Shown here: positions 1,439-63,432 of the stretch, piece after piece
How the letters are laid out: every line of letters starts with the position of its first letter
Numbering within the stretch: the first letter of the stretch is position 1
Source of the DNA: Thermoanaerobaculia bacterium
GTDB lineage: Bacteria; Acidobacteriota; Thermoanaerobaculia; Gp7-AA8
Length of the DNA stretch: 64,000 nucleotides
NCBI GenBank assembly: GCA_041748075.1
Contig: JBGTDX010000083.1
Coordinates: 16,383 to 80,382 of the forward strand
Direction of reading: 5' to 3'
The notes under the pieces: model-generated
Told to the model about the DNA's origin: nothing
What the model saw: only the letters and a program-made list of their open reading frames with translations
The model's database searches: none
Position numbers and translations under genes: made by a program

Positions 1439-1447
1439 AAGGAAGAC

Positions 1448-1554
1448 GAATGTTGAATGTTGAATGTTGAATGTTGAGTGGAGCACGACCGAGGTGGCGG
1501 GAGCGTCGATATCCAGTTCAACATTCAACATTCGACATTCAACAATTCGACATG
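1448..1554. repeat. long hairpin with arms made of tandem 7-mers (GAATGTT x4 on the 5' arm, complementary AACATTC units on the 3' arm) and a GC-rich loop of about 37 nt
   Basis: The sequence reads gaatgttgaatgttgaatgttgaatgttgag ... ttcaacattcaacattcgacattcaacaattc. The stem is roughly 28 bp with few mismatches. It fills the fabG-to-GT2 gap and reaches the GT2 ATG at 1556. Confidence 0.6.
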
Positions 1555-1555
1555 A

Positions 1556-2497
1556 ATGACAACTCGGCCCTACTTTTCCGTCGTCATCCCGACCTATAAC
1601 AGGCTCGAGGTGCTGCTCCGGGTTCTCGACTCTCTCGCGTACCAAATGGACGCTCCACCGTTTGAGGTCATCGTGATCGACGACGGATCGGAGGATGCTA
1701 CAGAGTCGACGATAGTCAAGCGCTCGATCGCGAATGTGGACCCTTACCGGCTCACCTTTGAATCGCAGAAAAACTCGGGCCCCGGAGTGGCAAGGAACCG
1801 CGGCGTCCAGCTCGCTCGCGGAACATTCATCATCTTCATCGGAGACGACACGGTCCCGGAATCCGCCTTCCTTCGCGAGCACGCCCTGACCCACCACGAG
1901 ACCGGCAACGCCAGGCTTGCCGCCTGCCTCGGCTATACCGGCTGGCCGGTGGATGAGCGAGTGACGAGCTTCATGCATTACATCAACAACTATGGCCTGC
2001 AGTTCGGCTATAAGCTCATCGGTGACGGTGAGGTCGTCCCATTCAACTTCTTCTACACCTCGAATATCTCAATCAGCCGGGAACTGCTCCTCGAATTTCC
2101 GTTCGATACCAGCTTTCCATCCGCAGCGTGGGAGGACATCGAGCTCGCCTTCCGGCTCGATGCGTACGGCCTGAAGATTCATTACAACGCGAGCGCCGTG
2201 ACACGGCATTATCATCCGATGACGGTCGACTCATTCGCCCGCAGGCAGTACACGGTGGGCAGATCGGGGGCGATCTTTTACAGGAAGCATCCCGAGCTCG
2301 GCCACTTTTTGGGTGTGCACGAGCTCGCTGAACGCGGCCTTGCCAGCGAACGGCAGATCAGCTGGCTTCGCCGTACCGCGAAGGTCGGGGAGAAATTCTC
2401 GCTGCTCGCCAGACACGACAGCTTCGAGAAACTCATGCGGCAGCACTATCTGCGGGGACTCCGAGATGGTCTGGCTGCGGATGCTGAGGGAAAGTAG
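1556..2497 (+). CDS. glycosyltransferase family 2
   Basis: SVVIPTYNRLEVL...IVIDDGSEDAT GT-A fold signature; 313 aa. Confidence 0.75.
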   Translation: MTTRPYFSVVIPTYNRLEVLLRVLDSLAYQMDAPPFEVIVIDDGSEDATESTIVKRSIANVDPYRLTFESQKNSGPGVARNRGVQLARGTFIIFIGDDTVPESAFLREHALTHHETGNARLAACLGYTGWPVDERVTSFMHYINNYGLQFGYKLIGDGEVVPFNFFYTSNISISRELLLEFPFDTSFPSAAWEDIELAFRLDAYGLKIHYNASAVTRHYHPMTVDSFARRQYTVGRSGAIFYRKHPELGHFLGVHELAERGLASERQISWLRRTAKVGEKFSLLARHDSFEKLMRQHYLRGLRDGLAADAEGK

Positions 2498-2500
2498 AGA

Positions 2501-2580
2501 GTAAACAGTAGCCACCCGACCGCGCACGGTGTGCCCTATTCGAGAGGGTGAGGGGCTACTGTCTACTGTCTACTGTGTCT
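2501..2580. repeat. hairpin with gtaaacagtagcc paired to ggctactgtctac and a tandem TACTGTC x3 on the 3' arm
   Basis: Inverted repeat read directly in the GT2-to-tmk intergenic gap. The loop carries two small GC hairpins. Confidence 0.5.
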
Positions 2581-2615
2581 TGTCTCCTCCAGAACGTCAG
2601 GTAGAATGCGCCGCT

Positions 2616-3293
2616 ATGAGCTCGCGAGGTTTTTTTCTCACCGTTGAAGGCATCGAAGGTTCCGGAAAGACGACGCAGGTACATCTCATCGCACAGGCGC
2701 TCCGAGGGTCGGGACAGCATGTTGTGCTCACCAAGGAGCCCGGCGGCACCCCGCTCGCCGACCGGATCCGGTCCATCCTGCTCGACCCCCACGAGGAAGG
2801 GATGGATCCGACCACCGAGTTGTTTCTCTACGCCGCTTCACGCAGGCAGCACGTCATCGAGGTGATCGCACCATCGCTCGAAGCCGGCGTCCCGGTCCTC
2901 AGCGATCGTTACACCGATGCGACACTCGCTTATCAGGGGTTCGGACGTCTGCTGGACCTGGATCAGTTGCGGACGCTGAACCACTGGTCGACCGACGGAA
3001 TTCAACCGGACGTGACGCTGATCTACGATCTCTCCGAGGAAATCGGGCTCGGACGCGCGAGAGAGCGAAACAGGACTTCGGATCACCTTCAGACCGAGAG
3101 CCGTCTCGAGGGAGAAGACTTTCGCTTTCACCGCCGTGTGCGCGAGGGCTACCTCACCCTCGCCGCTTCCGAGCCCGACCGTTACGTGGTCATCGATGCA
3201 ACCGGAAGCGTCGAGGAGGTCTTCGAACGGACCCTCGCAGAGTTGCGCGCGCGGGCACCGAAGCTCAATTTTTCCGGCGCACCCGACGCATGA
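2616..3293 (+). CDS. tmk: thymidylate kinase (dTMP kinase); start taken at the internal ATG at 2616 within ORF 2529..3293
   Basis: FLTVEGIEGSGKTTQ P-loop and the DRY motif region (LSDRYTDATLAYQG). Confidence 0.85.
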   Translation: MSSRGFFLTVEGIEGSGKTTQVHLIAQALRGSGQHVVLTKEPGGTPLADRIRSILLDPHEEGMDPTTELFLYAASRRQHVIEVIAPSLEAGVPVLSDRYTDATLAYQGFGRLLDLDQLRTLNHWSTDGIQPDVTLIYDLSEEIGLGRARERNRTSDHLQTESRLEGEDFRFHRRVREGYLTLAASEPDRYVVIDATGSVEEVFERTLAELRARAPKLNFSGAPDA

Positions 3294-8632: not shown

Positions 8633-9430
8633 ATGGCACGGCTCATGCTGGATTTTCAGTTCATGACAGACATACTCGAATCCATCGAAACGAATCTCAA
8701 CGCACGTCTTCATTCTTCTTCAGCTGACATCAACGTGGGAGGAACGGAACGTCTCGCGTCGGTGATCGGCGGGAGCGCCGTCGCGCTTTATGGGCTCACA
8801 CGGGGCTCGGTCGGAGGGGTTGCCGCCGCATTGCTTGGAGGGCTGCTCGTTTACCGGGGGACCACGGGGCACTGCCCCGCATTCAGCGCGCTCGGCATCA
8901 GCTCGGCTGACGAGGAGACCAGCGAGAACACCAGCATTTCATACGGCCGTGGAATCGGCGTCGAAAAATCGATCATCATCCGCCGCGAACCGTCCGAGAT
9001 CTACCGATTCTGGCGTAATCTCGACAATCTGCCGCGATTCATGGCACACCTCGAATCAGTCGTTGAAACGGATGAGAAGCGTTCGCATTGGGTGGCAACG
9101 GGACCCGCGGGGAAAACCGTCGAATGGGACGCGGAGATCATCAACGAGATACCTGATGAGCTGATCGGCTGGCGCTCTCTCGAAGGCTCCGAGGTCGACA
9201 ACGCGGGATCGGTTCAGTTCCGAACCGCGGCCGGCAATCGCGGAACTGAAGTGCGCGTATCCCTGCGCTATGACCCGCCCGGCGGCGCTCTGGGGGCGGT
9301 CGTGGCAAAACTTTTCGGAGAAGAGCCGGGCCAGCAGGTCGAGGGAGACCTCAGGCGGCTCAAATCGTTGCTCGAAACCGGAGAGGTTCCCACGACCGAA
9401 GGGCAGCCGACCGGCCGCGCCGAGGCGTGA
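8633..9430 (+). CDS. DUF2892 (YgaP-like membrane anchor) plus SRPBCC/cyclase-dehydrase domain protein
   Basis: The N-terminal TM region is Gly/Ala-rich with a CP motif ([15 protein letters not shown]). The C-terminal part has a polyketide-cyclase/SRPBCC-like fold. The start could be the ATG at 8633 or at 8663. Confidence 0.6.
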
Positions 9431-10634: not shown

Positions 10635-10722
10635 GTGTCATCCTGAGCGCAGCGAAGGATCCCCTCAGATCTTGCGATACAGCCGGTAGGCGGGGGATCC
10701 TTCGCTGCGCTCAGGATGACAC
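10635..10722. repeat. palindromic MITE-like repeat, copy 1 (inner palindrome GTGTCATCCTGAGCGCAGCGAAGGATCCCC ... GGGGATCCTTCGCTGCGCTCAGGATGACAC); a degraded outer arm tggcgtcaact lies upstream
   Basis: Read directly; the same roughly 30-bp arms recur at 47237, 54355, 59731 and 63348. Confidence 0.7.
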
Positions 10723-12513: not shown

Positions 12514-12522
12514 GATAGACTA

Positions 12523-12625
12523 GTGACGAATGACGAATGACGAATGGAGACGACGGCGTCGCACCCACGCGAAGGGTGGGTGTGCATTCGTCATTCGTCA
12601 CTCGTCATTCGTCATTCGTTGATCA
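12523..12625. repeat. long hairpin with heptamer-repeat arms (GACGAAT x3 against CATTCGT x4-5), with a nested GC hairpin in the loop
   Basis: The sequence reads gtgacgaatgacgaatgacgaatgga ... cattcgtcattcgtcactcgtcattcgtcattcg. It lies between the cstA stop and the M64 peptidase start. Confidence 0.6.
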
Positions 12626-12651
12626 CTCGTACCAACGACGACAGGAGACTT

Positions 12652-14120: not shown

Positions 14121-14150
14121 CCCCTCTCCCCGTGTGAACGGGGAGAGGGG
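14121..14150. terminator. very stable GC hairpin CCCCTCTCCCCG-tgtgaa-CGGGGAGAGGGG, about 40 nt after the M64 peptidase stop
   Basis: A 12-bp perfect stem. A second copy of the same stem (ccctctccccgacttcgcggggagaggg) lies at 14283-14310, and a half-copy at 14221-14232. Confidence 0.5.
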
Positions 14151-14254: not shown

Positions 14255-15739
14255 TCAACGTCTGCGCGGAGGCCGCGCGCCACCCTCTCCCCGACTTCGC
14301 GGGGAGAGGGAGAGCACGCGAGCGTCACCCGACTGGTTCATCGCTTCCGCGTCATTCGCAATTGCGCGCGCGAGATCGCTGAAGATAAGACCGTGCAGCG
14401 GGTAGAGAGCGTACCAGTACAGCACACCGAACAGGCCTTTCGGCGCGAAAAGCGCCGTCTGCACGAGTTTCGAGACGTTGCCCTCTTCCACCACTTCCCA
14501 CTGCAACCAGGCGCGACCTGGAACTTTCATCTCGGCGCGCAGGCGCAGCAGATGACCCTGCTCGATCGCCTCGACGCGCCAGAAATCGAGCGCCTCTCCG
14601 ACGAAAAGCTTCTGACGGTCGCGGCGTCCACGGCGCAGGCCGGGACCTCCGAAGAGGCGGTCCATCCATCCACGAACTCGCCACGCAAAGTTCCAGCGAT
14701 GCCATCCGCGATCCCCTCCAAGTGACGTGAACGCGGCGAACACCTTCTCCGGCGAAGCGTTCACTTCGATCGAGCGGACCTCGCGCATCATTCCTTCCCG
14801 ATCGGTCAATTCATAGGCAGGCGTGTCGTGCAGTGCGCCGCTCCAGCGCGTTTCGATCTCGATGTCCGGCTCGATCGCTGCAATCACGGCATCGCGATAG
14901 GACGTCGGCTTGATTTTTGGGAAGAGCTCTTCCGCCCGGCCTGTGTCCGCGACGACCGGCTCGACGATCCCTTCCATGAGAGGCACGGCCAGCCGGTTCG
15001 GGATCGGCGTGACGAGTCCCACCCACAAACCGGCAATGCGGGGAGCAAGAACAGGAACCGCGATGATCTTCCGCCGAAGCCCCCTCACGTCCGCGTACGT
15101 CTGCATCATCTGCCGAAAGCTCAGTCTGTCGGCACCGATCTCCACGATGCCCGACGCATCGCTTTCCGTTGCCGCGACCAGATAGCTGATGACGTCCCGG
15201 ATTGCGATCGGCTGCACGAGGTTCTCGATCCAGCGCGGCGCGACCATTGCCGGCAACCGCTCGGTGAGATACCGAAGCATTTCAAAGGACGCGGAACCCG
15301 ACCCGATGATGGGGCCGGCACGGAACTCCAGCGCCGGCAGCGAAGCTCGTAGAATCGATCCCACTTCCGCGCGGCTGCGCAGGTGCTCCGATCGCCCCTC
15401 TCCGGTCGGCAGGAGCCCTCCGAGATAAATCACCTTGCGCAGAGTCCGCGGGGAGGCGGCGACGAACGTGTCTGCTGCGCGGCGATCGGTCTCCTGGAAG
15501 CCTTCGGCCATCATCGAGTGAACCAGGTAGTAAGCCTGGTCGACATCCGCGAGTGCCCGCTCCATCGACTCGCGGTCGAGCAGGTTTCCTTCTACGACCT
15601 CTACTGAATCAAGCCACGGGCGGCCGGCAATCCGCGAGGCGTCCCGTACGAGCACGCGGACCTGATGACCCGCTGCAAGCAAAGGAGGGATGAGACGTCC
15701 GCCGATGTAGCCGGTTGCGCCCGTGACGAGAATCCGCAT
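14255..15739 (-). CDS. NAD-dependent epimerase/dehydratase (SDR, NmrA-like) fused to a DUF2867-like C-terminal domain
   Basis: MRILVTGATGYIGGRL Rossmann N-terminus. The C-terminal 20 codons run through the GC hairpin repeat, so the true stop may have been altered by the repeat. Confidence 0.65.
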   Translation of the reverse strand: MRILVTGATGYIGGRLIPPLLAAGHQVRVLVRDASRIAGRPWLDSVEVVEGNLLDRESMERALADVDQAYYLVHSMMAEGFQETDRRAADTFVAASPRTLRKVIYLGGLLPTGEGRSEHLRSRAEVGSILRASLPALEFRAGPIIGSGSASFEMLRYLTERLPAMVAPRWIENLVQPIAIRDVISYLVAATESDASGIVEIGADRLSFRQMMQTYADVRGLRRKIIAVPVLAPRIAGLWVGLVTPIPNRLAVPLMEGIVEPVVADTGRAEELFPKIKPTSYRDAVIAAIEPDIEIETRWSGALHDTPAYELTDREGMMREVRSIEVNASPEKVFAAFTSLGGDRGWHRWNFAWRVRGWMDRLFGGPGLRRGRRDRQKLFVGEALDFWRVEAIEQGHLLRLRAEMKVPGRAWLQWEVVEEGNVSKLVQTALFAPKGLFGVLYWYALYPLHGLIFSDLARAIANDAEAMNQSGDARVLSLSPRSRGEGGARPPRRR

Positions 15740-16123: not shown

Positions 16124-17512
16124 ATGCAAGAGCTTCAGGAGTTTTTGAACGCGGCGTCGAGCTTCGTCTGGGGACCCTGGCTTCTGGTTCCTCTTCTTCT
16201 GTTAACGGGCCTCTACCTCACGGTCATCCTGCGGGGAATTCAATTCCGGGAGCTCGGCCGTTCGCTCTGGCTTGCCCTGGTTGTCCGAACCGAAAAGGGC
16301 GCCGACGGCGACATCAGCCACTACCAGGCGTTGATGACGGCTCTGGCAGCGACGGTGGGGACCGGAAACATCGTCGGGGTCGCGACTGCGATCGCCCTAG
16401 GGGGGCCGGGGGCACTGTTCTGGATGTGGATGACGGGGCTCGTCGGAATGGCCACCAAATACTCCGAGGCTCTGCTGTCGGTGAAGTACCGGATCACGGA
16501 TCATTCGGGCGAGCAGGCGGGCGGGCCGATGTACTACCTGCGGGATGGCATCAGGTCGAAGCCGCTCGGAGCAACTCTGGCTTTTCTGTTCGCGCTATTT
16601 GCCTCGGTTGCGGCCTTCGGGATCGGCAACATGGTGCAGTCCAATTCTGTTGCCGGTGCCCTGAACACATCCTTCGGAATCCCGACGTGGATCAGCGGGC
16701 TCGTCATTGCTCTACTGGCAGCCGCCGTGATTCTCGGAGGGATCAAGTCGATCGGGCGCTTCAATGCCCTGTTCGTCCCGGCGATGATCGTCGCCTACAT
16801 GATCGGCGCATCCGTGATCATCGCCATGAATATCAGTAGCGTTCCCGAGGCGTTCCGACTCATCTTCACGAACGCATTCACGCCGACAAGCGCCGCCGGA
16901 GGATTTCTCGGCGCCTCCGTGATGGCCGGAATCCGGTACGGTGTGGCGCGCGGTATCTTCTCGAACGAGTCCGGGCTCGGATCGGCCGGCATCGCAGCTG
17001 CTGCCGCGCGGACCCGCGAGCCGGCTCGGCAGGCATTCGTCTCGATGACGCAGACTTTCATCGACACGATCGTGGTCTGCACATTCACAGGCGTCGCGAT
17101 CATCTCGACCGGAGCCTGGACCTCGGGAGAAGGAGGGGCAGCGATCACCCAACTCGCGTTCCGCGAGGGACTTCCCGGCAACTGGGGCGGCTGGATCGTT
17201 GCCATCAGCCTCTCGATGTTTGCTTTCTCGACGATCCTCGGCTGGAGCTACTACGGCGAGAAGTCGATCGAGTATCTGCTCGGCGAACGGTCGAAACTTC
17301 CCTACCGCATCCTCTTCGTCATCGCCACGTTCTTCGGAGCGATCTACAGTCTCGATTTCGTCTGGACCCTCTCGGACCTGATGAACGGCCTCATGGCGCT
17401 GCCAAACCTGATCGGATTGCTGCTGCTCAGCGGCGTGATCGTCGCGGAGACGAAGGCGTACATAGCGCGCCGGAAGGCCGAGGAGCCGATGAACAGGAGG
17501 GGCGGTCTATGA
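16124..17512 (+). CDS. alanine/glycine:cation symporter (AGCS family)
   Basis: 462 aa polytopic protein with a [12 protein letters not shown] sodium:alanine-symporter signature. Confidence 0.85.
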
Positions 17513-18028: not shown

Positions 18029-20254
18029 TCAATCCGCATCCGCTCGAACGCGCCTGACCGGCACGATCTCGACGCGCGTACGCGTCGCGACCGGCCGATC
18101 AAAGAAACGGTCGATACGAGACGTTGCCAGCGCGACCTCGCGTGAAGGCTCGAGGCGGAATTCGGCATCGTACGAGCCTGTCGGGGCCGACGCTGTCAGA
18201 ATCGTGTCGGGCTGATAACTGAGTGCAGTTAAACGCACAACTCCGAAGCTTCCCGTTGAGCTGCCCGCAAAGCTTTCCCGTCGACCGATGAAGTAACGTC
18301 CGCCCCCCATTGCGAAGTCGAACACCATGTTCCCTCCTCTTTCGTCGAGGCGAAGAGACGCCGTTCCTGCGAGCGCTACGCGAGACGACAGATCAAAGGA
18401 TCCCTGGAGGAGAGCCTCGACCAGGAGCCGTTGCCCGGGCCTCGTTTCCCCGGGCAGACAGGCCGTGCGTCCGAGAGTGCCACCTTGGCTCTCCCACTCG
18501 ACCTGGAAGCACGGCGGATCTTCGGCGCGGATCTCCAACACCGCAAGTTGAACTCGATCCAGACGGAATGCAGATCCCAGGCTCGGGTAGACGGCCACTC
18601 GTTCGGGGAATGAGGAGGGGTACTCGTCGAAGAGGTGCAGCCGATGCTCTCCGAGGTCGCGAATCTCCCGGCCGATCATCTTCGCCTGATGCAGCTCAGG
18701 CCAGTTCGAGCGACCGCCGCCTTTGCGCGCCATGGCCGTGCCTTTGTTTGCCACCGACTCGGGATCGAAGGTCTCGATGGCGGCGCGCAATGCCAGGCGA
18801 TGGGGCCCGTCGCTCTCGCTTCTGGGGCCGAAAGACTCGGCCAGGTTCGTCATCGTACCGAACGCGAGTCCCGTTGAAAAGGTCGCGCCATACAACGGGA
18901 TCCAGGAACCGCCATCAAACGAACCTTGAAGCTCCGCCCAGGCGAAGAGCGGTGGCAAACCGGAAACGCAAGAGAAACTGGTGTAAAGATGAGGGGGTTC
19001 GGACGTCAAGCCGAACATAGAGACATCGGGAACGACCTGAATGGAGGCTCGGCGAACCAGCAGTCTCAGTTCTTCATCATTGTGCCGGGCGAGTCGCTTT
19101 GCAACGTCTGCCTCGAAGGCGGGCCAGTACGAATCCACGAAGGACGGGCTGACGTTACGGGCAATGGACTGATCGAGCACTTCCTTGATCCTCTCCCGTT
19201 GCCGCCGGTCCGCAGATTGTCGCTGGGCCAGTTCGAGGCCACCAGCAAGGCCAGCCAACGCCAACAACAGTGCGGTTACCGCTACAGCTTGCCGGTACCG
19301 TCGCACCCATTTATAGCTGCGCCACAGCCAGGTGATCGGACGCGCATGGATCGGCTTTCCCTGCAGGAAGAGCTCGAGATCATCAGCCAGTTCGCCCGCC
19401 GTCCGATAGCGCCTTTCTGGCTCTTTTTCGAGACAGTGAAGCACGATCGCCTCGAGATCGCGGTCGACGTCGCGGCGGAGACTCGAAAGCTTCGCGGGTT
19501 CGTCCTGCAACACCTGGCGCAGTGTGTCGATGATCGACTCTCCACGAAACGGCGGACGGCCAGCGAGTAGATCGTAGAGAAGCGCGCCGAGGGCGTAGAT
19601 GTCCACGGCGGTGGTGAGGACCCGCCCCCCAGCGGCCTGTTCGGGCGCCATATAACTCGGCGTTCCGACGATCGCATCGCTCTTGGTGAGGCTCGGCTCG
19701 TTCCCGAAGCGCCGCGCCAGTCCGAAATCCGCGACCTGGGGTTCGCCCTGAGAATCGATCAGGACGTTCGCCGGCTTCAGATCGCGGTGAACGACGCCCC
19801 GCCTGTGTGCGTAATCGACGGCCCGAGCGGTCTTCATGATGATCGTGGCCGCGCCATTCTGCTCTCGTCCCATCTCGTCGGGCCGTTCCCGGAGGCTCTT
19901 CCCGTCGATCAGCTTCATCGTGAAGTAGTGCGTTCCGTCATGTTCTCCGACCTCGTAGATGGGGACGATGTTCGGATGATCGAGTTGTGCGGCGGCTTCG
20001 GCCTCTCGCCGGAAACGACGCACAGAACCTTCAGATGCGAAATCTCCACCCAGGATGACTTTCAGCGCGACGAGGCGGTCGAGAGTGACCTGACGCGCTC
20101 TGTAGACGATCCCCATCCCGCCGCGAGCGATCTCCTCGAGAATCTCGAAGTCGCCGAAGTAACGGAGTTGCGATCCCGCCTCAAGACCCTTCTTCTCCGG
20201 GTCGCGGTCGGGGCCTCCTGAGATGGTCGACTCGAAGGATGAATCGGGACTCAT
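18029..20254 (-). CDS. Ser/Thr protein kinase with a C-terminal domain of about 450 aa of unknown function
   Basis: Hanks kinase subdomains: GGMGIVYRARQ, VALKVI, HRDLKPANVLID, DFGLAR, GTPSYMAPE. Confidence 0.85.
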   Translation of the reverse strand: MSPDSSFESTISGGPDRDPEKKGLEAGSQLRYFGDFEILEEIARGGMGIVYRARQVTLDRLVALKVILGGDFASEGSVRRFRREAEAAAQLDHPNIVPIYEVGEHDGTHYFTMKLIDGKSLRERPDEMGREQNGAATIIMKTARAVDYAHRRGVVHRDLKPANVLIDSQGEPQVADFGLARRFGNEPSLTKSDAIVGTPSYMAPEQAAGGRVLTTAVDIYALGALLYDLLAGRPPFRGESIIDTLRQVLQDEPAKLSSLRRDVDRDLEAIVLHCLEKEPERRYRTAGELADDLELFLQGKPIHARPITWLWRSYKWVRRYRQAVAVTALLLALAGLAGGLELAQRQSADRRQRERIKEVLDQSIARNVSPSFVDSYWPAFEADVAKRLARHNDEELRLLVRRASIQVVPDVSMFGLTSEPPHLYTSFSCVSGLPPLFAWAELQGSFDGGSWIPLYGATFSTGLAFGTMTNLAESFGPRSESDGPHRLALRAAIETFDPESVANKGTAMARKGGGRSNWPELHQAKMIGREIRDLGEHRLHLFDEYPSSFPERVAVYPSLGSAFRLDRVQLAVLEIRAEDPPCFQVEWESQGGTLGRTACLPGETRPGQRLLVEALLQGSFDLSSRVALAGTASLRLDERGGNMVFDFAMGGGRYFIGRRESFAGSSTGSFGVVRLTALSYQPDTILTASAPTGSYDAEFRLEPSREVALATSRIDRFFDRPVATRTRVEIVPVRRVRADAD

Positions 20255-20339
20255 GCCTGACCCCCTCGCCGCAGCCTGGAACGATCAGTCATCCCATGAC
20301 GCTGCACGGAATCAGTATCGTGCAGGGACCCTCCCGAAG

Positions 20340-20499
20340 CATGAGAGGTTTATGAGATTTTTGTGTGCCCGCTGTTTCGTCGATAGACCAGGTACTCGAT
20401 CCCGCCCTGATCGCGAGCGAAGGATGGCCCAATTCCAGCCACGGGCCGTTCCTTCCTGGTCCGCGCCGTTCCTCGCGTCAATTTGATGAACAGTACCTT
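20340..20499 (-). pseudogene. remnant of a gene 3' end homologous to the C-terminal tail of the kinase at 23496..26708
   Basis: The minus-strand translation ...RPVAGIGPSFARDQGGIEYLVYRRNSGHTKIS* parallels RPGWSWTWLGVSHPELARDEGRIEYMTYRRNSGSQ... The nucleotide similarity continues through the spacer into the next start codon. Confidence 0.4.
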
Positions 20500-23484
20500 T
20501 TACGAGTTCGGTGCTGGTTTGACCAAAGTAATCGTTTCCTCGGTGGAGACTTCGTTGGCGGTGCTGGAAGATCTGTCCAAGGTTTGAAATAGCGTGCCCA
20601 TCTGACTGAGGTCGCGGAGGACTTCGTTTCCATTGCGGAGTCGCCGGTCGAGGCTGGGGTCGATCATTCGCTCGATCAACGACGTGAGCTGCGAAGGAAT
20701 ACGCGCGTCGGGCACTTCCGGTCTGGTGGAAAGAATCTCCAGAGCCAGATTGGTCGAATCGTGTGATTTCCAGGGGCGACGTCCCGTGAATATCTCGCTT
20801 AGCACGATTCCGAACGACCAGACGTCCGCGCGAGAGTCGACCGACTCGCCTCGCAACTGCTCCGGCGAAATGTACGGCAAGGATCCGAGCACCCGCTGCT
20901 GCGACGTGATTGATGTCGTCCCCGCCGAACGTGCGATCCCGAAGTCAAGAAGAACGGTCCGGCCGGATCGGGTGAGCATGACATTCGAGCTCTTCACATC
21001 GCGATGAACTACGCCGGCCTGGTGAAGTGCGGCGAGCGCAGAAGCGACTTCCAGGGCCACCTGGTACGCTGTGAGTTGATTCCAGGATGACCGCCGGATC
21101 GACTCCGCCAGCGTGTCACCTTCGAGCAACTCCATGGCCAGATAGATGCGACCGTCATGCTCACCGCGCTCGAGGAGGCGCACGACATTCGGGTGGGCTA
21201 ACGAAGAGATCACCGCTCCTTCCCGTTCGAGGCGTTTGCGCGCTTCCTCTTTTTCGATCTCCAGCTCGGGAAGAAGCTTGATTGCCGCGAAGGAGTCGTC
21301 GTGAACGTTGACTGCGCGAAAGACTTCGCCCATGCCCCCGGATCCGATCTTCTCCATCAATTCGTAGGCGCCAATCCTCTGCTTCAGCCCATCGGCCAGA
21401 CCTCGAAGCGGGCGTCTGACGTCAGGGAGGGCCAGAAACCTCGTGTCGCCGACTTCGAATCGTTCATTGCGGAGGACGATCGTCGACCGATCGAGCAGAC
21501 GCTGCACGCCGACGCCGATCTGGATTTCCGAGGTTTTGATGCCCGCGTCAAGAAACATTTGCTTCAACCCTTCGATCAGCGCTTCCTTCGAGTCGAGCTG
21601 AGCTGTCGTCAGGCGAGTGATCCCGGCGAAAATGAGACGACTGTGGCGATCGAGCATTCGCCAGTCTGACTCCGCCACGCGAAGTGTACGCAACCTCTGA
21701 TTCTCGATTCCCACAGAGAGCTGACGCGCAACGTCGAGGAGAAATTCTTCATCTCGAGCATCGAACTCCTCGTCGGAGAGTTTCCAGCCGATTCCGATGA
21801 GGGCAACGAGCTCTCCGGTCACTCGGACGGGAACAATCAGACTCGCCTGCGTTCGTTGAATCGTGGCGCTGTCCTCGTCGCTGAGACCTCCGCCGGAGGC
21901 CCGAAGGATCGAGGAGAGATCGGCCAGGGAGCTCGTGGAGCTGATGGTCGTGTCTCGCACGTCAACGTCCACGAGCCCGGCCTGAGCCGCCACGTGGAAG
22001 AAGGGCATGAAGGGCTCACGGCTGAAGATCACGATGGATCGAGCTCGCAACGTATCGCAAAGATGGAGGGCGACGCTGTGAAAGAGCACGTCCGTCGTCG
22101 ATGCCTTGAGGATCTCTTCGCTGACCACTCGTAGCGCTTCAGCGTGTTGATAGGGCTCGCGGAAGAATCTCTGATCGACGACCCGTTGAATCCTGTTCTT
22201 CAGGGGGACGAAGATCCCGGCGATTGCCAGCGTGGAGACAATGGTTACTGTCTGGTTCTGCAGGCCCGATGAGGCCACGAACAACCGTCCCAGAACAGCC
22301 ACGAGCCCGACGTAAAGGAGGATCAATATGACACTCAGCGCGGAATACGCGATCGTCTTCTTGATGAGTCTGTCGATTCCGAGCAGGTTGCGTTTCAGGA
22401 TGGCGAAGGCAAAGGTAATCGGAATGATCATCAGACCTCGAGGATCGATTCCGAATTGGATTTCGTTCATTCCTTCTTCTTCGCTGATTCGAAGATTCAT
22501 GACCGTCGGAAGCAACACGGAGACAATGATTCCAACGATGATTCCCCAGACTGGCCAACGGATCTGGCGTTTCTCCTCCAGACTCGATTGGCGATAGGCC
22601 TTGATGAGATTGACGGGGGCCAGAATGAAATAGGCGATCCCCGAAAGGATGAAGCCTACGAGGCCGACCAGCGCGGGCGTCGGCATGTCAGTCCCCATCG
22701 CATCGATCGTGCCGAAAAAGAGCAAGGCGAACGCCGCGGGGAGGAGGTACAGCGCCGGCTTGAGTGCCGGCTTTCTCTCCACCAGCGGCCGCGGACGGGG
22801 GAAGATCAGACTGAGGTGCAGCGTCATGGCCGGGATGAAAACCAGGATGGATAACACCGAGAAGAGCATCAACACGACGAGAAGAGGATCCTTTACTGCG
22901 TTAGCGACAAGCCTCTCCGCAGCGGGAGACAAAGCGAGAATTCCGAGAAATCCGCACAACCAGTGGAACAGACGTGCGCGCGCATCACCTAGTTTTCGAT
23001 AGTGCACCAGAGTCCCCAGCCCGAGGAGGAATGCGGCCATGAGCGACCCGGAGATGAGCGAGATGATGAAGAAGCGCGAGTCGATGAGCCGTCGCGGAGT
23101 CACCGTGACCTCGCGTTCTCCCGTGATCTCGGCCTTTCCGCGCTTCTGTTCGACGCGGCCGAAAACATAGCGCCGCGGCTCGCCCGTGAATAGCCTCGTT
23201 GCACCGGCCTTGCCCGGCGAACGATGATCGATCTGGAGAAGAAGCTCGCCACTGCGCACTCCGGCGTCGTCGGCGGGACTATGCTTGTCGACGTCGATCC
23301 ACACCGACTGATCACCCTCCGGTTCCTGGCGGAAACGGATTCCGTCCCAGGCAGACCGGTAGAGAATCGTGACGGCGATCGACAGCGTGGCAATTGCCAG
23401 GACGCCGAGGACACCACTGGCGATGAGAAACGCTCGAAGTTCTGTGGCCATTGATCCCTGACTTGGAGATTCGATCGGAACCAT
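20500..23484 (-). CDS. membrane sensor Ser/Thr kinase: N-terminal TM, periplasmic PDZ-like segment, about 8 TM helices, GAF-like domain, C-terminal Hanks kinase
   Basis: The kinase motifs are at the C-terminus (GSGGMGEVFRAVN, HRDVKSSNVMLT, DFGIARS). The N-terminal two-thirds is polytopic. Confidence 0.8.
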   Translation of the reverse strand: MVPIESPSQGSMATELRAFLIASGVLGVLAIATLSIAVTILYRSAWDGIRFRQEPEGDQSVWIDVDKHSPADDAGVRSGELLLQIDHRSPGKAGATRLFTGEPRRYVFGRVEQKRGKAEITGEREVTVTPRRLIDSRFFIISLISGSLMAAFLLGLGTLVHYRKLGDARARLFHWLCGFLGILALSPAAERLVANAVKDPLLVVLMLFSVLSILVFIPAMTLHLSLIFPRPRPLVERKPALKPALYLLPAAFALLFFGTIDAMGTDMPTPALVGLVGFILSGIAYFILAPVNLIKAYRQSSLEEKRQIRWPVWGIIVGIIVSVLLPTVMNLRISEEEGMNEIQFGIDPRGLMIIPITFAFAILKRNLLGIDRLIKKTIAYSALSVILILLYVGLVAVLGRLFVASSGLQNQTVTIVSTLAIAGIFVPLKNRIQRVVDQRFFREPYQHAEALRVVSEEILKASTTDVLFHSVALHLCDTLRARSIVIFSREPFMPFFHVAAQAGLVDVDVRDTTISSTSSLADLSSILRASGGGLSDEDSATIQRTQASLIVPVRVTGELVALIGIGWKLSDEEFDARDEEFLLDVARQLSVGIENQRLRTLRVAESDWRMLDRHSRLIFAGITRLTTAQLDSKEALIEGLKQMFLDAGIKTSEIQIGVGVQRLLDRSTIVLRNERFEVGDTRFLALPDVRRPLRGLADGLKQRIGAYELMEKIGSGGMGEVFRAVNVHDDSFAAIKLLPELEIEKEEARKRLEREGAVISSLAHPNVVRLLERGEHDGRIYLAMELLEGDTLAESIRRSSWNQLTAYQVALEVASALAALHQAGVVHRDVKSSNVMLTRSGRTVLLDFGIARSAGTTSITSQQRVLGSLPYISPEQLRGESVDSRADVWSFGIVLSEIFTGRRPWKSHDSTNLALEILSTRPEVPDARIPSQLTSLIERMIDPSLDRRLRNGNEVLRDLSQMGTLFQTLDRSSSTANEVSTEETITLVKPAPNS

Positions 23485-23495
23485 TTCTTCCCAGC

Positions 23496-26400
23496 CTAGT
23501 CCTTGCGAAACTGTACCTCGACGAGTCTGATTTCGCGCTGACTCCCGCTGTTTCGTCGATACGTCATGTATTCGATCCGGCCCTCGTCGCGAGCGAGCTC
23601 AGGATGGCTCACTCCCAGCCACGTCCAGCTCCATCCTGGTCTGGAGGGCAAGGTGTCGATCTCGATCACCGCTTCCGACCACGGGCCCTCCGGACGGTCG
23701 GCGAGACGAATCTGGATTCGCTCGTCGAGAACCCGGCTTCCGACGGCCATGAATTTGCCGAGGAATGCATTCCAATGGACGCTGAAAATCCCCCGCTGAA
23801 TTCCTGCACTGAGAACCGGCTGCGCGTCCTTCCAGTCGCTGCTCCAGCGTCCGTGTGCCCCAAGAAACCGCCACGCAGAGCGGTCAAGGGCCGCGGCAAG
23901 GGGGACGCGCGCCAGTCGGCACGAAGCCTCGAGGCCGCGAGGCTCGCAGGCGTATGCGTACATCTGATCGCCGACGACCAGCGCCGCCGCTCCCCACGCC
24001 GGTTCATCCGGTCCGAAGAGCAGCGTTGGGGTATCCGTTTCCGGGCGAACCGCCGGCCGATCGCCCGTGAGACTCCCCCGGGTCCAGACGGCCAGAGACG
24101 TCCCGACGGACTCGTCGTCTCGCGGCGGCTGCCTCAGCATTCGACGGTAGAAGACGAGAAGGCGATCTCGCTCGCCGTCCGCGACGACCGCTGCGGGCGC
24201 GAGAATCCACCCCACCCCGCACGGCTCAACGCAGTTCGCGCCACTGTGCGCTGCGTTGAAGGCCGCTTCCTCCTTTGTCAACGGCAATAGCTCGCTCGGC
24301 ACGCCTGTTCCATCCTTCAACTCGTCGAGGACGTCGAGGCCCTTCCTGGCATCCAGCTTGTCCGTCCAGGCAAGAGTCGCTTGTCTCGAAGTCGAGCCCT
24401 TCCTCCCCGAACGTGTCGTTGTCGTCTCCCCGAAGACCCAGACGGACTCTCCGCCGAGACGCGCGCTGTAGCCTCCCTCGCGATCGACTACGGTCTCGTC
24501 GAAGTCGAGCGGTCCCATGTCGCGCGCCTCCTCGACGAAGATCACCGGCAGAAGAGCCTGCGTGCGGGCGGCGGCTTGGGGACGCCTCCAGGACCGATAG
24601 AGACTCGCGAGTCTGACGAGCGCCTGCTGCGTCGAGGCGTTGTTTCCGCCACGCTCTGTTTCCAGCACCGGGATCGCCTCCAGGAGCAGCGTCTCGGCCT
24701 CCCCGAACCGCTCGCGGGCGGTCAGGAACGCGCCGAGGTCTGACCGAAGCCTGGCCGCACGCGCGGATCGCTCCAGTCCAACTTCTCCCAGAAGGCTCAA
24801 TGCTTCGCGGAGGACCGGCTCCGCCGCGGCGTCGCCGACTTGCAGCAAGCGAGCACCGTTGCGCTCGAGAATCGTGGCCAGCGACCGCTGCGTTTCGAGC
24901 AGACTCGGCGCCCCCGGCGGGAGTACTCTTCTACGCCGCGCCAACGAGGCGCGGTAGACCGACTCGAGAGCCTCGTCATTCGCGTCGGCCGGCCGCAGCG
25001 ACTTGGCCTCGAGCCGCTCAACCAGACGCTCCATGAGCTCGATCATGTGCTCGTCCGCGCTGGCGATCTTCCCGCGCATCTGCGCCAGGATCCGCCGTCG
25101 CAACGCGTCAGCCTCTTCCGGGGCCAGCAGCTCCGTCATCAGGACGGCCGCATGGACTGCGTCGGGGTCGCCCCGATCGAGCGCCCGATCGACGAGCGTC
25201 AAACCCTCACGCATCAACTTCTCCCGCCCCTCATATTCGCTGCTCGAGGAGAAGAAGCCGTAACGAAACAACTCGAGCAGGAAGAGTCGGTTCACCGCAT
25301 ACGAGGCGAGGCCAGGACTCCCCTCTCCGAGCAGCGAATTGTGCAGATCCATCGCCTCGCCGGATAGCTTCACATAACGGCTGCGGTCTCCGAGCAGCGC
25401 CGCCTGCACCGACTGAGCCTCCAACGCGTTGCGAGCGGCCTCCGACTCGGCGCGTTGCTGCGCAGCTTCAGACCGAAAGTACAGGGAGGTGATCACCACG
25501 GCACCAGCGAGAAGGATGACCAACAACCCGGCCGCGGCCGCGAACGCAGCGCGATGCTTCCGGACGAGTTTCTTCAATCGATAGGAGCGACTCGGCGGGC
25601 CGGCCAGGACAGCTTCGTCGGCAAGGTGTCGTCTTGCATCGGCAGCCAGCTCGGATGCGGATTGGTACCTTCGGTCCGGATCCTTTTCCATCGCGCGCAG
25701 CGTGATCCACTCCAGTTCCCCGCGAAGCTGCCGGGCCAGAGAGCGGATGTCCGTGTGCCGCCGCCGCGCGATCTCCGGTGCTGAGTCCCCGAGACTGCCG
25801 AACTTCGTCGTCGGCCTCGGCGGCTCCTCCTCCTGGATGATGCGGAGCATCTCCACCGCCGCGGCCCGCCGAAGGGTGGCCGGATCGAAAGGAAGGGCGC
25901 CAACGAGAAGCTCGTAGAGCAGGACTCCAAGAGAGTAGATGTCGGTCCGGGCGTCGACGTCGAGCGCCGTCGTTCCCGCCTGCTCCGGACTCATGTACTC
26001 GGGGGTGCCCATCATGACACCCTGCTTGGTGAACAACGTCTGCTCGGTCAGTGTCTGGCCGGTTGCCGTGGCCAGCCCGAAGTCGATGACTTTCGGAACC
26101 GGGGTTCCATCGTCCGAGGACACCAGGACGTTCGACGGCTTGACGTCCCGGTGGATGACGCCTTTCTGATGGGCATGCTGAATTGCGTCGCAAACCTTCG
26201 TAAATAGAGCCAGCCTTTCTCGAAGTGGAAGACATCGCAAGTCGCAGTACTCGGTGATCCGGATGCCGGGCACGTACTCCATGACGAAGTACGGCCGTCC
26301 CTGATCCGTGGCGCCTGCGTCGAAGACTTTGGCCACGTTGGGGTGGTTCATGACGGCGAGAGCCTGACGCTCGGCAGCGAAGCGGGCCAGCACTTCGCGG

Positions 26401-26708
26401 GTGTCCATGCCCGGCTTGATCACTTTGAGTGCCACACGGCGGCGGATCGGCTCGATCTGCTCGGCGAGGTACACGATGCCCATTCCGCCCTGGCCAAGGA
26501 TCTGGAGGATCCGATAGTTGCCGACGTGAGTGGGGTGGTCAGTTGAAAGAAGTTGCGATTCTGCGGGAGCTCCCCCGGTAATGGTGGACTCGCCCTCTCC
26601 CTCATTGGGCGCGAGCTCCAGATTCTGCAGGCATTTCGGACAGAGTCCGTTCGCGATCTCCTTCGGAAGGGCGTCACCACAGTCGGGGCATCTTGGATCG
26701 GAGTTCAT
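23496..26708 (-). CDS. Ser/Thr protein kinase with an N-terminal zinc ribbon, a TM helix, a TPR-like helical region and a C-terminal beta-rich domain (DUF4185-like guess)
   Basis: CPDCGDALP...CPKCL zinc ribbon; GQGGMGIVYLAEQ, HRDVKPSNVLV, DFGLA. It lies 12 bp upstream of the next kinase. Confidence 0.85.
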   Translation of the reverse strand: MNSDPRCPDCGDALPKEIANGLCPKCLQNLELAPNEGEGESTITGGAPAESQLLSTDHPTHVGNYRILQILGQGGMGIVYLAEQIEPIRRRVALKVIKPGMDTREVLARFAAERQALAVMNHPNVAKVFDAGATDQGRPYFVMEYVPGIRITEYCDLRCLPLRERLALFTKVCDAIQHAHQKGVIHRDVKPSNVLVSSDDGTPVPKVIDFGLATATGQTLTEQTLFTKQGVMMGTPEYMSPEQAGTTALDVDARTDIYSLGVLLYELLVGALPFDPATLRRAAAVEMLRIIQEEEPPRPTTKFGSLGDSAPEIARRRHTDIRSLARQLRGELEWITLRAMEKDPDRRYQSASELAADARRHLADEAVLAGPPSRSYRLKKLVRKHRAAFAAAAGLLVILLAGAVVITSLYFRSEAAQQRAESEAARNALEAQSVQAALLGDRSRYVKLSGEAMDLHNSLLGEGSPGLASYAVNRLFLLELFRYGFFSSSSEYEGREKLMREGLTLVDRALDRGDPDAVHAAVLMTELLAPEEADALRRRILAQMRGKIASADEHMIELMERLVERLEAKSLRPADANDEALESVYRASLARRRRVLPPGAPSLLETQRSLATILERNGARLLQVGDAAAEPVLREALSLLGEVGLERSARAARLRSDLGAFLTARERFGEAETLLLEAIPVLETERGGNNASTQQALVRLASLYRSWRRPQAAARTQALLPVIFVEEARDMGPLDFDETVVDREGGYSARLGGESVWVFGETTTTRSGRKGSTSRQATLAWTDKLDARKGLDVLDELKDGTGVPSELLPLTKEEAAFNAAHSGANCVEPCGVGWILAPAAVVADGERDRLLVFYRRMLRQPPRDDESVGTSLAVWTRGSLTGDRPAVRPETDTPTLLFGPDEPAWGAAALVVGDQMYAYACEPRGLEASCRLARVPLAAALDRSAWRFLGAHGRWSSDWKDAQPVLSAGIQRGIFSVHWNAFLGKFMAVGSRVLDERIQIRLADRPEGPWSEAVIEIDTLPSRPGWSWTWLGVSHPELARDEGRIEYMTYRRNSGSQREIRLVEVQFRKD

Positions 26709-33831: not shown

Positions 33832-34620
33832 CTACCGGAACTTTCGGCTCAGCCGGTCCCGGCTGAGGCTGTCCACTTCCGCAAGGATGGGGTTCAGAAT
33901 TTCACGCTGCTTGTCGATGAGCTGAGCGATCCCTGAGCGGCCGAGCGAGAGCATCCCCTGCAGTTCTTCATCGCTGAACGTCGCCCCCTCGGCAGTGGCC
34001 TGCAGCTCGATGAACCGCATTTTGTCGGTTGCAACGATGTTCATGTCGACGCCGGCTTTCGAATCCTCGATGTAATTGAGATCGAGTACCGGAATTCCAT
34101 CGACCACGCCGACCGAAACGGCGGCGACCCACTCCCGGATTGGCCAGGAAACGATCTTTCCGTTCACGTAGAGCTTGCCAAGCGCGAGCCCCAGAGCGAC
34201 GAATGCGCCGGTGATCGACGCTGTGCGCGTTCCACCATCTGCCTGGATCACATCGCAATCGATCCAGATCGTTCGTTCTCCGAGCTTCTCCAGATCCACG
34301 GCAGCCCGGAGAGATCTGCCGATGAGCCGCTGAATCTCCATCGTGCGGCCACCCTGCTTGCCTTTGGTCGCCTCCCGCTGGGTCCTGTCGGAGGTCGCAC
34401 GCGGCAGCATTCCGTATTCGGAAGTGATCCATCCCTTTCCCGTCCGATACAGAAACGAAGGAACTTTCTCCTCGATCGAGGCGGTGCAGATGACCCGGGT
34501 CTCACCGACTTCGATCAGCACCGACCCTTCGGCATGCGTGGTGAAACCGGGACGAAGAATGATGGGACGCAACTCGTCGGCCGCGCGGCCGTCAACACGT
34601 TGTTTCGGATTCGAGGACAT
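33832..34620 (-). CDS. rph: ribonuclease PH
   Basis: [13 protein letters not shown]...[16 protein letters not shown]...[13 protein letters not shown] signature. Confidence 0.9.
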
Positions 34621-34632
34621 TGGGCTCCTGGG

Positions 34633-34719
34633 GAGAATTAAGAATTCAGAATTCAGAATCAGAATTCAGAATGAAGGCCGTTCCCCTTTCTGAATTCTTG
34701 ATTCTAAATTCTCAATTTC
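34633..34719. repeat. long imperfect hairpin with GAATTCA/GAATCA heptamer-repeat arms between the glgC stop and the rph start
   Basis: gagaattaagaattcagaattcagaatcagaattcagaatgaagg ... ctttctgaattcttgattctaaattctcaatttc; the stem is about 35 bp. Confidence 0.6.
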
Positions 34720-37870: not shown

Positions 37871-37875
37871 TTTGC

Positions 37876-37915
37876 GGGAGTAGACAGTAGGCCGCCCGCC
37901 CCTTGTCTACTGTTC
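37876..37915. repeat. hairpin AGTAGACA-n17-TGTCTACT carrying the same TACTGTC/GACAGTA unit as the 2501-2580 element
   Basis: Read directly, immediately after the lpxH-like stop. Confidence 0.4.
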
Positions 37916-38009
37916 ATTGTCCACTGCGTGGCTCCTGTTTTCGGAAAAAGTGAATTGAGCCGTATCGGGTGGTGGGCTACTGTCAATTGGTTAACGTGCA
38001 ACTGAAATC

Positions 38010-47236: not shown

Positions 47237-47324
47237 GTGTCATCCTGAGCGAAGCGAAGGATCCCCTTCCTCGAGGCGTCACGGCAAGTCTTCAGGGGAT
47301 CCTTCGCTTCGCTCAGGATGACAC
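47237..47324. repeat. palindromic MITE-like repeat, copy 2 (subfamily with right-hand extension ccacaatgac-n7-gtcattcg reaching about 47365)
   Basis: Read directly; shares its inner loop and right extension with the copy at 63348. Confidence 0.7.
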
Positions 47325-50899: not shown

Positions 50900-50972
50900 C
50901 AAAGGGATATCTTCATGCCTCACCCTCCACTCTTCACTCTTCATCTTTCATCTTTCCGACTATCCTTCATCC

Positions 50973-54308: not shown

Positions 54309-54480
54309 CGGACTGGTGCCCCAATGGCGTCAACTTAAGGACTGAGCACGAGCAAGTGTCATCCTGAGCGCAGCGAAGGATCCCCATACTATGGGCTGGG
54401 ATCGCAAGGCTTTGGGGGATCCTTCGCTTCGCTCAGGATGACACCTTGTGCCTTAAGTTGACGCCATTGGGACTGGTGCC
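54309..54480. mobile_element. MITE: 12-bp target-site duplication (ggactggtgccc), perfect 19-bp TIRs (CAATGGCGTCAACTTAAGG) and the nested inner palindromic repeat
   Basis: TSD at 54309-54320 and 54469-54480; TIRs at 54321-54339 and 54450-54468; inner palindrome at 54355-54443. Confidence 0.7.
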
Positions 54481-59660: not shown

Positions 59661-59696
59661 TCCACAAAGCAGCACCCGAACAGCTTTCGCGCGCGT

Positions 59697-59843
59697 CAAT
59701 GGCGTCAACTTAAGGCCCGCGCAGGGGCAAGTGTCATCCTGAGCGCAGCGAAGGATCCCCTTACTACTGGCTGTTTCGCAAGGTCTGAGGGGATCCTTCG
59801 CTCCGCTCAGGATGACACTTCGGACCTTAAGTTGACGCCATTG
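59697..59843. mobile_element. second MITE copy with the same 19-bp TIRs and inner palindrome; no clear TSD
   Basis: TIRs at 59697-59715 and 59825-59843; inner palindrome at 59731-59818. Confidence 0.65.
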
Positions 59844-59951
59844 CGGCCCGCGCGAGAGTTCAACTGCAGTGAGGCTCGAGGGCCGAAAATGCAACTCCGG
59901 GCGACAAGTGTCGATTTAGAAATTTGCGGGCAGTCTCATCAATCGCAACCC

Positions 59952-63237: not shown

Positions 63238-63347
63238 AGGATCTGGCTCGAACGCCGTCGCTCTGAAAGGCCGGGACGAGTCACGAGAGCGTTGTCATCC
63301 CAGGCCATGAAAATGGTCGGGCCATTGAACCGGAAAAAGGAACCAAC

Positions 63348-63432
63348 GTGTCATCCTGAGCGAAGCGAAGGATCCCCCTCGAGGCAATGCGGCAAGTCTT
63401 CAGGGGATCCTTCGCTGCGCTCAGGATGACAC
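63348..63432. repeat. palindromic MITE-like repeat, copy 5 (same subfamily as 47237, with a right extension to about 63470)
   Basis: Read directly. Confidence 0.7.

Follow-up and report, generated by a model that had tools for sequence, protein, structure and literature searches.

Bacteria have been known since 1990 to carry heptanucleotide repeats, whose length of seven, origin and function are still not understood. They are the most over-represented long simple sequence repeats (SSRs) in many bacteria, an excess for which polymerase slippage has been held responsible (Mrazek 2007, as cited in PMC4679880 and PMC4692102). Named cases are the STRR sequences of Calothrix and Nostoc (Mazel et al. 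1990, as cited in PMC4692102), the TTTTGAA repeats of Nostoc (bioRxiv 10.1101/2022.06.06.494920), the TAACTGA repeats of Beggiatoaceae and cyanobacteria (PMC4679880), and the GGGAATC repeats of Xanthomonas (Rehm et al. 2015, PMC4692102), whose genomes each carry 70-75 convergent pairs of heptamer arrays, with conserved gene context and variable length (PMC4692102, PMC4679880). Here we describe hairpins with arms of tandem heptamers in a 64-kb stretch of a metagenome-assembled genome (MAG) of Thermoanaerobaculia (Acidobacteriota), hereafter the window, and in its relatives. Like other long heptanucleotide SSRs, they consist of head-to-tail 7-nt units in three or more copies, period 7 is over-represented, and copy number varies between close relatives. 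We put the probability at about one half that these elements are a dispersed, fast-evolving class of intergenic repeats, abundant in Thermoanaerobaculia and of the same kind as the cyanobacterial STRR sequences and the Xanthomonas GGGAATC pairs.

The Xanthomonas pairs are the closest match. There, too, tandem 7-nt units are intergenic and lie mostly in two nearby convergent arrays on opposite strands, with a function that is likewise unknown. The Xanthomonas system differs in having a single type of unit, whose G3 tract is interpreted as forming G-quadruplexes, whereas dozens of units are found here and those of the window (GAATGTT, GACGAAT, GAATTCA and ACAGTAG) contain no GGG, the tract of three or more G per unit that characterizes the G-quadruplex-forming repeats of Xanthomonas and Nostoc (GGGAATC, GGGGAYT). 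The host phylum also differs, being Acidobacteriota here, and several unit families co-exist within the 64 kb. The cyanobacterial heptamers share with the elements described here several co-existing families and many dispersed intergenic copies, often beside start codons, with no known mechanism or binding partner. However, they have mostly been described as direct repeats, with few inverted pairs in Nostoc, whereas about two thirds of the arrays here form inverted pairs, and both the units and the host lineage differ. The STRR1-3 units of heterocystous cyanobacteria are CCCCAGT, TTGGTCA and CAACAGT; none of these is among the 102 arrays analyzed below, and the host here belongs to the Thermoanaerobaculia. 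A literature search found no description of such repeats for Acidobacteriota and no relevant paper with the exact repeat strings.

Heptamer hairpins in the window and in related genomes

An initial annotation of the window had listed three intergenic elements with tandem 7-mers in both arms, each in the spacer of a co-directional gene pair. Arrays, inverted repeats and RNA folds were all recovered at these three places, the elements rank among the longest inverted repeats of the window in an inverted-repeat search, and gene calls place them between functionally unrelated, co-directional genes (SDR/GT2, CstA/M64 and GlgC/RNase PH). Hairpin 1 (RNA stem bounds 1447-1549, plus strand) separates an SDR gene, with its stop at 1438, from a glycosyltransferase-2 (GT2) gene that starts at 1556. 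Tandem Repeats Finder identified (GAATGTT)x4.3 at 1448-1477 and (TTCAACA)x5.1 at 1517-1553. The 5' arm (1448-1481) and the 3' arm, which consists of five AACATTC/TTCAACA units (1517-1549) with a repeat register running on to 1554, enclose a GC-rich loop of about 35 nt. The minimum free energy (MFE) of the RNA is -55.8 kcal/mol, compared to -28.1 +/- 3.6 for dinucleotide shuffles (z = -7.6). Hairpin 2 (12518-12624, plus strand) lies between the CstA stop at 12513 and the M64 peptidase ATG at 12652, the latter preceded by a Shine-Dalgarno (SD) sequence, AGGAG, at 12643-12647 on the 3' side of the element. Its arrays are (TGACGAA)x3.3 at 12524-12546 and (CATTCGT)x5 at 12585-12619, its loop holds a small hairpin of its own (CACCCAC/GTGGGTG), and its MFE is -64.7 kcal/mol (z = -6.8). 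Hairpin 3 (34633-34719, minus strand; unit GAATTCA/GAATCA) lies between glgC, with its stop at 34723, and rph, which encodes RNase PH (33832-34620, start 34620) and has its own AGGAG and start codon following the hairpin; both genes are on the minus strand. Here (AGAATTC)x5.7 at 34634-34672 faces a degenerate complementary array at 34688-34717, and the MFE is -39.5 kcal/mol on the transcribed minus strand (z = -5.2) and -31.9 on the plus strand (z = -3.2). The folding energies proposed as a check thus give a single long hairpin on the transcribed strand in each case, and the fold z scores across the three sites span -3.2 to -8.6.

The list of three was correct and incomplete. Hairpin 4 (2493-2576, plus strand; unit ACAGTAG/CTACTGT), between the GT2 gene and tmk, has a 5' arm that reads AGTAGAG AGTAAAC AGTAGCC and leads into a GC-rich inner stem; its 3' arm consists of three CTACTGT units, and its MFE is -44.5 kcal/mol (z = -4.0). 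A degenerate hairpin 5 of the same ACAGTAG family (37876-37986, strand not assigned), AGTAGACAGTAGGCCGCCCGCCCC ... GGGTGGTGGGCTACTGT, has one to two units per arm and an MFE of -40.7. Finally, about five units of a C-rich array, TTCACTC/TTCATCT, occupy 50920-50956 on the plus strand, just upstream of a thioesterase start at 50964, with no inverted partner within 350 nt.

A scan of the window for tandem periods found six period-7 runs at a score of at least 12 and none for periods 4-6, 8 or 10-12, along with one 9-mer run at 58461-58487; block shuffles of the window gave no runs. Period 7 is therefore the sole enriched tandem period, and the repeats clearly exceed chance. Assemblers do struggle at these arrays, as contigs L001, L037, L171, L173 and L177 (L numbers denote loci and contigs) start or end within them. 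However, an independent Logan assembly (L001, run SRR28170463) has the identical sequence, dozens of independent MAGs contain the elements, as do over 120 metagenome contigs, shuffles yield none, and a typical read is longer than the arrays. Fortuitous similarity and faulty assembly are effectively refuted as explanations.

To survey relatives, we used 39 loci orthologous at the GT2 gene (64-83% identity), nearly all titled Thermoanaerobaculia or Acidobacteriota MAGs, which together with one locus of 42% identity form a set of 40 loci (L002-L041, 645 kb). This set holds 71 period-7 arrays, compared to 0, 1, 2, 7, 5, 0, 5 and 4 for periods 4, 5, 6, 8, 9, 10, 11 and 12, respectively. Abundance is patchy, with 14 arrays in L034, ten in L040 and none in several others; the MAGs of L034 (JAJXWV01), L040 (CALMZP01), L033, L035 and L037 are rich in arrays, and the Thermoanaerobaculia genomes OY970284.1 and OY970380.1 appear poor in them. 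Unit diversity is high (e.g. AAGGATG, AAGGCAG, AAAATCC, ACTCAGY, AATTCTC, ACACCCG and ACCTCTC, of which L035 has about 70 copies). With the window included, 65 of 102 arrays have a partner in inverted orientation no more than 350 nt away, by a measure that admits about 5% of control segments; this is the convergent, opposite-strand pairing seen in the Xanthomonas and Nostoc repeats. The result is 39 hairpin elements with MFEs of about -26 to -227 kcal/mol. All 39 are intergenic, none lying in a credible coding region, while about 84% of the sequence is coding. Several units recur in different genomes at different loci. As a separate observation, L035 (5486-6265) is extremely asymmetric, with about five AGAGGTG units facing about 70 ACCTCTC/TCTCACC units, and the C-rich unit there resembles the anti-Shine-Dalgarno end of 16S rRNA.

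GAATKNN, which the initial annotation had taken to define the family, does not do so: the GAAT core is present only in the three listed elements, ACAGTAG takes its place in hairpins 4 and 5, and the relatives have dozens of unrelated units. What defines the elements is their 7-nt register together with the inverted layout of the arms. That the elements are not canonical REP, BOX or ERIC sequences was confirmed, and Rfam has no family for them; at gathering thresholds it identified only a tRNA-Asn in the window, and a permissive threshold added only sub-threshold matches to eukaryotic miRNA precursors on hairpin 1.

An exact register of 7 nt whatever the sequence is what might be expected of arrays of protein sites, read either by a protein that follows single-stranded nucleic acid in 7-nt steps, such as a cold-shock-domain protein, or by a DNA-binding regulator of repeated half-sites. 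CspB has been reported to bind heptamer repeats with one protein per unit (as cited in PMC4679880). Aligned units do share a weak core, nnYGRRn (3.78 bits, compared to 3.12 +/- 0.12 for shuffled units), a value confounded by related families that are counted repeatedly. However, the units are too diverse to be read by one sequence-specific protein, both arms are normally locked in a duplex, and the scanned window genes include no linked candidate, making such a role very unlikely.

Polarity of the arms

The arms have a strict handedness. The 5' arm contains more G than C in 37 of the 39 elements, and the 3' arm more C than G in 37 of 39. Because such a hairpin reads alike on both strands, this richness is intrinsic to the element, and all seven elements in divergent spacers obey the G-rich-first order. 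The 'convergent' pairs of Xanthomonas, as we read them, would have the same G-rich-arm-first polarity. We rejected the idea that polarity is a general hairpin trait of the lineage, as the 319 other inverted repeats in the same loci split 171 to 148 and show no such bias. Stop codons in the 5' arm are also insufficient to account for it: all-frame stops occur in only 12 of 39 5' arms, and the seven divergent elements are still polar.

The rule is not universal, either. Of the hairpins in metagenome contigs with (GAATGTT)3, 32 have the G-rich arm first and 20 the C-rich arm, the C-first ones forming a distinct family, (AACATTC)n ... (GAATGTT)n, with a conserved inner AACGCCCAA...TTGGGCGTT, which belongs to another lineage. 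C-first hairpins were found on contigs L050, L057, L059, L061, L070, L071, L075, L078, L080, L083, L092, L111 and L124. Two of these contigs, L050 and L111, apparently have flanking sequence in common and are perhaps orthologous loci, with different unit variants.

Turnover at orthologous spacers and probable copying of arms

Comparison of orthologous intergenic regions, another check proposed at the outset, revealed relatives without a spacer, with a heptamer hairpin of another unit, or with an unrelated hairpin. At the SDR-GT2 junction four relatives lack a spacer, with an ATGA 4-nt overlap in L015 and L029 and a similar overlap or abutment in L014 and L017. Where heptamer hairpins fill this spacer, their units differ: GAATGTT in the window, GTTGTCG in L016 and L010, and ATTTTGG in L040. 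In L027 a TTCTGCC array without a clear partner is present on the 3' side only, and L002 and L005 have an unrelated hairpin family (GTCATCCTGAGCG...GGATC). The GT2-tmk spacer carries ACAGTAG in the window and L002, GGGGGTC in L009, GATGAAC in L028 and AGAATTG in L034, while many other relatives are hairpin-free. The hairpin 4 orthologue in L002 has kept its unit and has five to six copies, compared to three in the window.

A closer relative was reached through RNase PH. A homology search with the window protein lists P0001, which is 100% identical, and P0002, with 89% identity, which represents a sister species seen in ten loci from different samples (ERZ272985xx, ROVI19). This species retains hairpin 3 with the same GAATTCA unit in a different arrangement. 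Its CstA-M64 spacer has an unrelated GC-rich hairpin in place of hairpin 2, and the spacer orthologous to window 37871-38009 (hairpin 5) holds a 363-nt compound heptamer element. Retention of hairpin 3, the absence of hairpin 2 and the variety at orthologous spacers show that elements persist across species-level divergence and turn over at greater distances. One arm of the 363-nt element, (GACTACY)n, comprises 5, 8 or at least 11 units, depending on the sister-species sample. Long arrays thus change in 7-nt steps within a species, and replication slippage, which the initial annotation had put forward as the source of the periodicity, is a reasonable one. Exact-protein look-ups of window proteins for strain variation returned one Logan contig, L001, which is identical to the window, or no record.

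Complementarity of the arms is not maintained everywhere. In one divergent spacer, L039 (6790-6925) has a period-7 hairpin of GGGGGTC units and L019 (about 9040-9230) a period-8 hairpin (GGGTTGCT). At the same place, L004 (9101-9230) combines a 5' arm of the L039 type with a 3' arm of the L019 type, and these are not complementary. The L004 chimera looks like a recombinant, and its arms show that pairing is dispensable.

Several observations touch on where units come from. In the sister species, the L169 spacer at 16893-17139, close to where the M64 peptidase gene ends, contains a one-unit mini-hairpin, GAATGACGAAAGTCGTCATT, whose unit is that of window hairpin 2, which sits at the other end of this gene; the mini-hairpin may represent a seed or a remnant. 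This spacer also carries a 3' half of the ACAGTAG family. The GTTCATC unit at L028 8993-9080 matches the adjacent tmk start, ATGTTCATCAC, and the CATTCAA/TTCGACA units of the window (1517-1560) resemble unexpanded sequence at L002 2680-2720, ...CTCGACCATTCAATGACG. Array units may have been seeded from local sequence, or these likenesses may be coincidence.

An all-against-all comparison of the 39 elements found similarity confined to the arms and never in the loops, and on this ground a miniature inverted-repeat transposable element (MITE) with conserved cargo was rejected. Loop lengths range from about 10 to about 290 nt, often with a GC-rich mini-hairpin inside, and complete copies of a GTCATCC... 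hairpin family lie within loops in L040 (15976-16248), L027 (10910-11267) and L169 (6418-6780). The arms of the element at L002 5414-5599 are perfect mirror images, irregular variant units included, and two copies in L002 have arms that are 97% identical with the same order of variant units. These mirrored and shared variants point to the copying of whole arms rather than to independent slippage. In the ACAGTAG family, a GC-rich inner stem, GCCnCCCnCCC / GGGnGGGnGGC, is conserved in the window, L002 and the sister species, so that this family looks like a REP-like core with an outer stem amplified by 7-nt steps.

The explanation we favor, at the even odds given above, is that these heptanucleotide-repeat palindromes are lineage-wide, non-essential intergenic repeat DNA that gains and loses units by 7-nt slippage, stays palindromic through inverted copying and has incidental effects on RNA. 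Arms lengthen and shorten in 7-nt steps through slipped-strand mispairing, and inverted copying, by fold-back or template switching across the hairpin, would maintain their complementarity. Elements survive only where 7-nt repeats are harmless, namely in intergenic spacers, and are gained, lost and replaced at a given spacer over genus-level divergence. Once transcribed, an element would fold into a very stable RNA hairpin, which probably acts in a REP-like way, as a barrier to 3' exonucleases or as a pause or insulator between cistrons, incidentally to its origin.

Several points weigh against this explanation. Simple slippage leaves the strict polarity unaccounted for (37/39, compared to 171:148 in the 319 ordinary inverted repeats), and it fails to explain the recurrence of units at several non-orthologous loci within and between genomes or the shared unit order of the two L002 copies. 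Recurring units suggest that arms are copied or mobilized. Short arrays are stable, as the hairpin 3 orthologue is identical in 10/10 sister-species samples, the copy-number differences derive from short-read assemblies, and the effect on RNA is one that we infer. The explanation does not account for the unit length of seven, the G-rich-5' polarity or the spread of units to new loci.

The main rival would account for both the polarity and the sharing of arms between loci. It holds that hairpins or their arms are moved in trans, in the manner of REPINs or MITEs, by a structure-recognizing enzyme (a Y1/HUH transposase of the RAYT or TIRYT type), so that the 7-nt units and the polarity reflect end recognition and processing by this enzyme while slippage merely modulates copy number. 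REPs and RAYT-mobilized REPINs (PMC3733652) resemble the elements in being dispersed, strain-variable intergenic palindromes, often head-to-head dimers of fixed polarity and thought to form RNA hairpins, and the ACAGTAG family adds a GTAG motif and the conserved GC-rich inner stem. Mobility is favored by the recurrence of units at non-orthologous loci and by the near-identical L002 arms, as well as by spacers that are empty in relatives and have become filled and by the nesting of elements with another mobile-looking hairpin family. It is also favored by a polarity that is peculiar to heptamer elements and is reminiscent of REP dimers, which are predominantly oriented with 'GTAG outside' (PMC3733652), and by the different metagenome lineage in which (GAATGTT)n shows the reverse polarity just as consistently, along with a conserved inner core.

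However, a REP is a 20-40 nt palindrome that is defined by its sequence and contains no tandem 7-mers, and most units here lack GTAG or CGTC. In the window, GTAG is found in hairpins 4 and 5 and CGTC in the 3'-arm unit of hairpin 2, with neither in hairpins 1 and 3. No single 20-40 nt palindrome is common to all copies, matches being limited to arms of one unit family and a conserved inner stem to the ACAGTAG family. As would not be expected of MITEs, loops are unrelated between copies and filled SDR-GT2 junctions show no consistent target-site duplication, and dozens of unrelated units would demand either many enzymes or one that is blind to sequence. About 40 of the 48 called window genes, a small part of any genome, were scanned and are ordinary housekeeping genes, with no transposase (RAYT, or Y1, included) or reverse transcriptase among them; open reading frames in the gene-free stretches that adjoin arrays of L034 and L040 likewise encode no Pfam domain and no RAYT, other transposase or reverse transcriptase. 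We therefore regard mobilization in trans as possible, though on the doubtful side. It appears unlikely, in turn, that the elements represent a structure-defined, so far unclassified class of bacterial repeats, widespread in soil and freshwater bacteria, that owes both its construction and its spread to a dedicated, inherently handed mechanism.

Placement, possible RNA-level effects and neighboring features

The initial annotation had noted the siting exactly between co-directional genes; a functional reason for this siting is not supported by the survey: elements in co-directional, convergent and divergent spacers number 24, 6 and 7, compared to 22.8, 7.2 and 7.0 expected from spacer numbers. 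Rho-independent terminators resemble the elements in forming a stable stem-loop straight after stop codons, but the elements have stems 3-10 times longer, lack a U-tract and are equally common in divergent promoter regions. No U-tract terminators were predicted at the three listed loci, and canonical terminators were rejected on the missing U-tracts and on a placement neither enriched in convergent nor depleted in divergent spacers. We take the elements to be neither canonical terminators nor a dedicated regulatory switch.

They could nevertheless be selected at the RNA level, as terminators that need no U-tract, as insulators, or as hairpins for processing and stability, in each case keeping unrelated cistrons apart, with heptamers being an easy route to a long stem. 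Consistent with this, the hairpins are extremely stable and begin 0-20 nt after stop codons, and hairpin 4 lies exactly between the GT2 stop and a promoter-like site for tmk (TTGTCT-16-TAGAAT, 2580-2607, plus strand; tmk ATG at 2616), which is directly 3' of it and is matched in relatives by TAGAAT or TACAAT boxes at the same distance from the tmk ATG. In the cstA-M64 spacer of the sister species, another hairpin occupies the position of hairpin 2, and at the GT2 flanks it is structure that recurs and not sequence. Folding is stronger for the sense than for the antisense strand in all four window elements and in about 14 of 21 co-directional cases overall. However, this overall difference is not significant, and selection through a sense-strand G-U advantage was rejected on that basis. 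The elements also lack U-tracts and show no enrichment in convergent or co-directional spacers and no divergent depletion, many relatives are spacer-free at the same junction, and L004 tolerates non-complementary arms. Selection for a cis-acting RNA is accordingly improbable.

The upstream stop codon lies within the 5' arm in 7 of 29 abutting cases, so that elements can absorb stop codons and reshape gene ends; in hairpin 4, the 5' arm contains the GT2 stop (2495-2497). At hairpin 1, for which the initial annotation had raised possible occlusion of translation initiation, the stem stops 6 nt short of the ATG; no SD sequence lies 3' of the stem, while an SD-like AGGAAG, read from the sequence, is found immediately 5' of it (1440-1445, plus strand). 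With the stem closed, AGGAAG would be about 9 nt from the ATG (1556-1558), so that hairpin 1 may as plausibly bridge the SD sequence and the start codon as occlude the latter. Separately, the -10-like TAGAAT/TACAAT box of tmk (window 2602-2616) ends just 8-10 nt before the ATG, as does that of GT2 in many relatives (GCTACAATCCGCCGCCCGATG), which suggests leaderless or near-leaderless mRNAs in this lineage.

The window also holds other repeats and genes. A second, unrelated hairpin family is present in five copies (10635-10722, 47237-47324, 54356-54444, 59729-59820 and 63340-63440). Its arms, GTGTCATCCTGAGCG(A/C)AGCGAAGGATCCCC, measure 30-38 nt and its loops about 26 nt, and around two of the copies lies an additional inverted repeat (CCAATGGCGTCAACTTAAGG...), at 54320-54471 and 59688-59852. 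This family fills SDR-GT2 or GT2-tmk spacers in L002, L005, L016, L027 and L040 and also occurs inside some heptamer-hairpin loops; a literature search found no paper with its sequence. A third, small hairpin, CCCTCTCCCCG...CGGGGAGAGGG, has two copies (14122-14149 and 14283-14310) in the convergent spacer after the M64 peptidase gene, and similar hairpins lie downstream of GT2 in L003 and L015. On the minus strand, 18029-26708 encodes three consecutive large Ser/Thr protein kinases (741, 994 and 1070 aa), one with a GAF domain and one with TPR and DUF4185 domains.

These elements have practical consequences, as they break short-read assemblies, and hairpins of -40 to -230 kcal/mol between cistrons are relevant to the annotation of Acidobacteriota and to models of their gene expression. 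If a dedicated mechanism did build them, candidates would be an HUH-type nuclease or a fold-back-priming polymerase that adds 7-nt units symmetrically to a stem, and this would account for the G-rich-5' polarity of 37/39 elements, the opposite and consistent polarity of the other lineage, and the sharing of arms but not loops. With its many unit families, mostly in hairpins, its strict polarity, and its clear gain, loss and replacement at orthologous spacers, this lineage provides a rich data set that is suited to testing whether polymerase slippage alone or a dedicated enzyme builds heptamer repeats.

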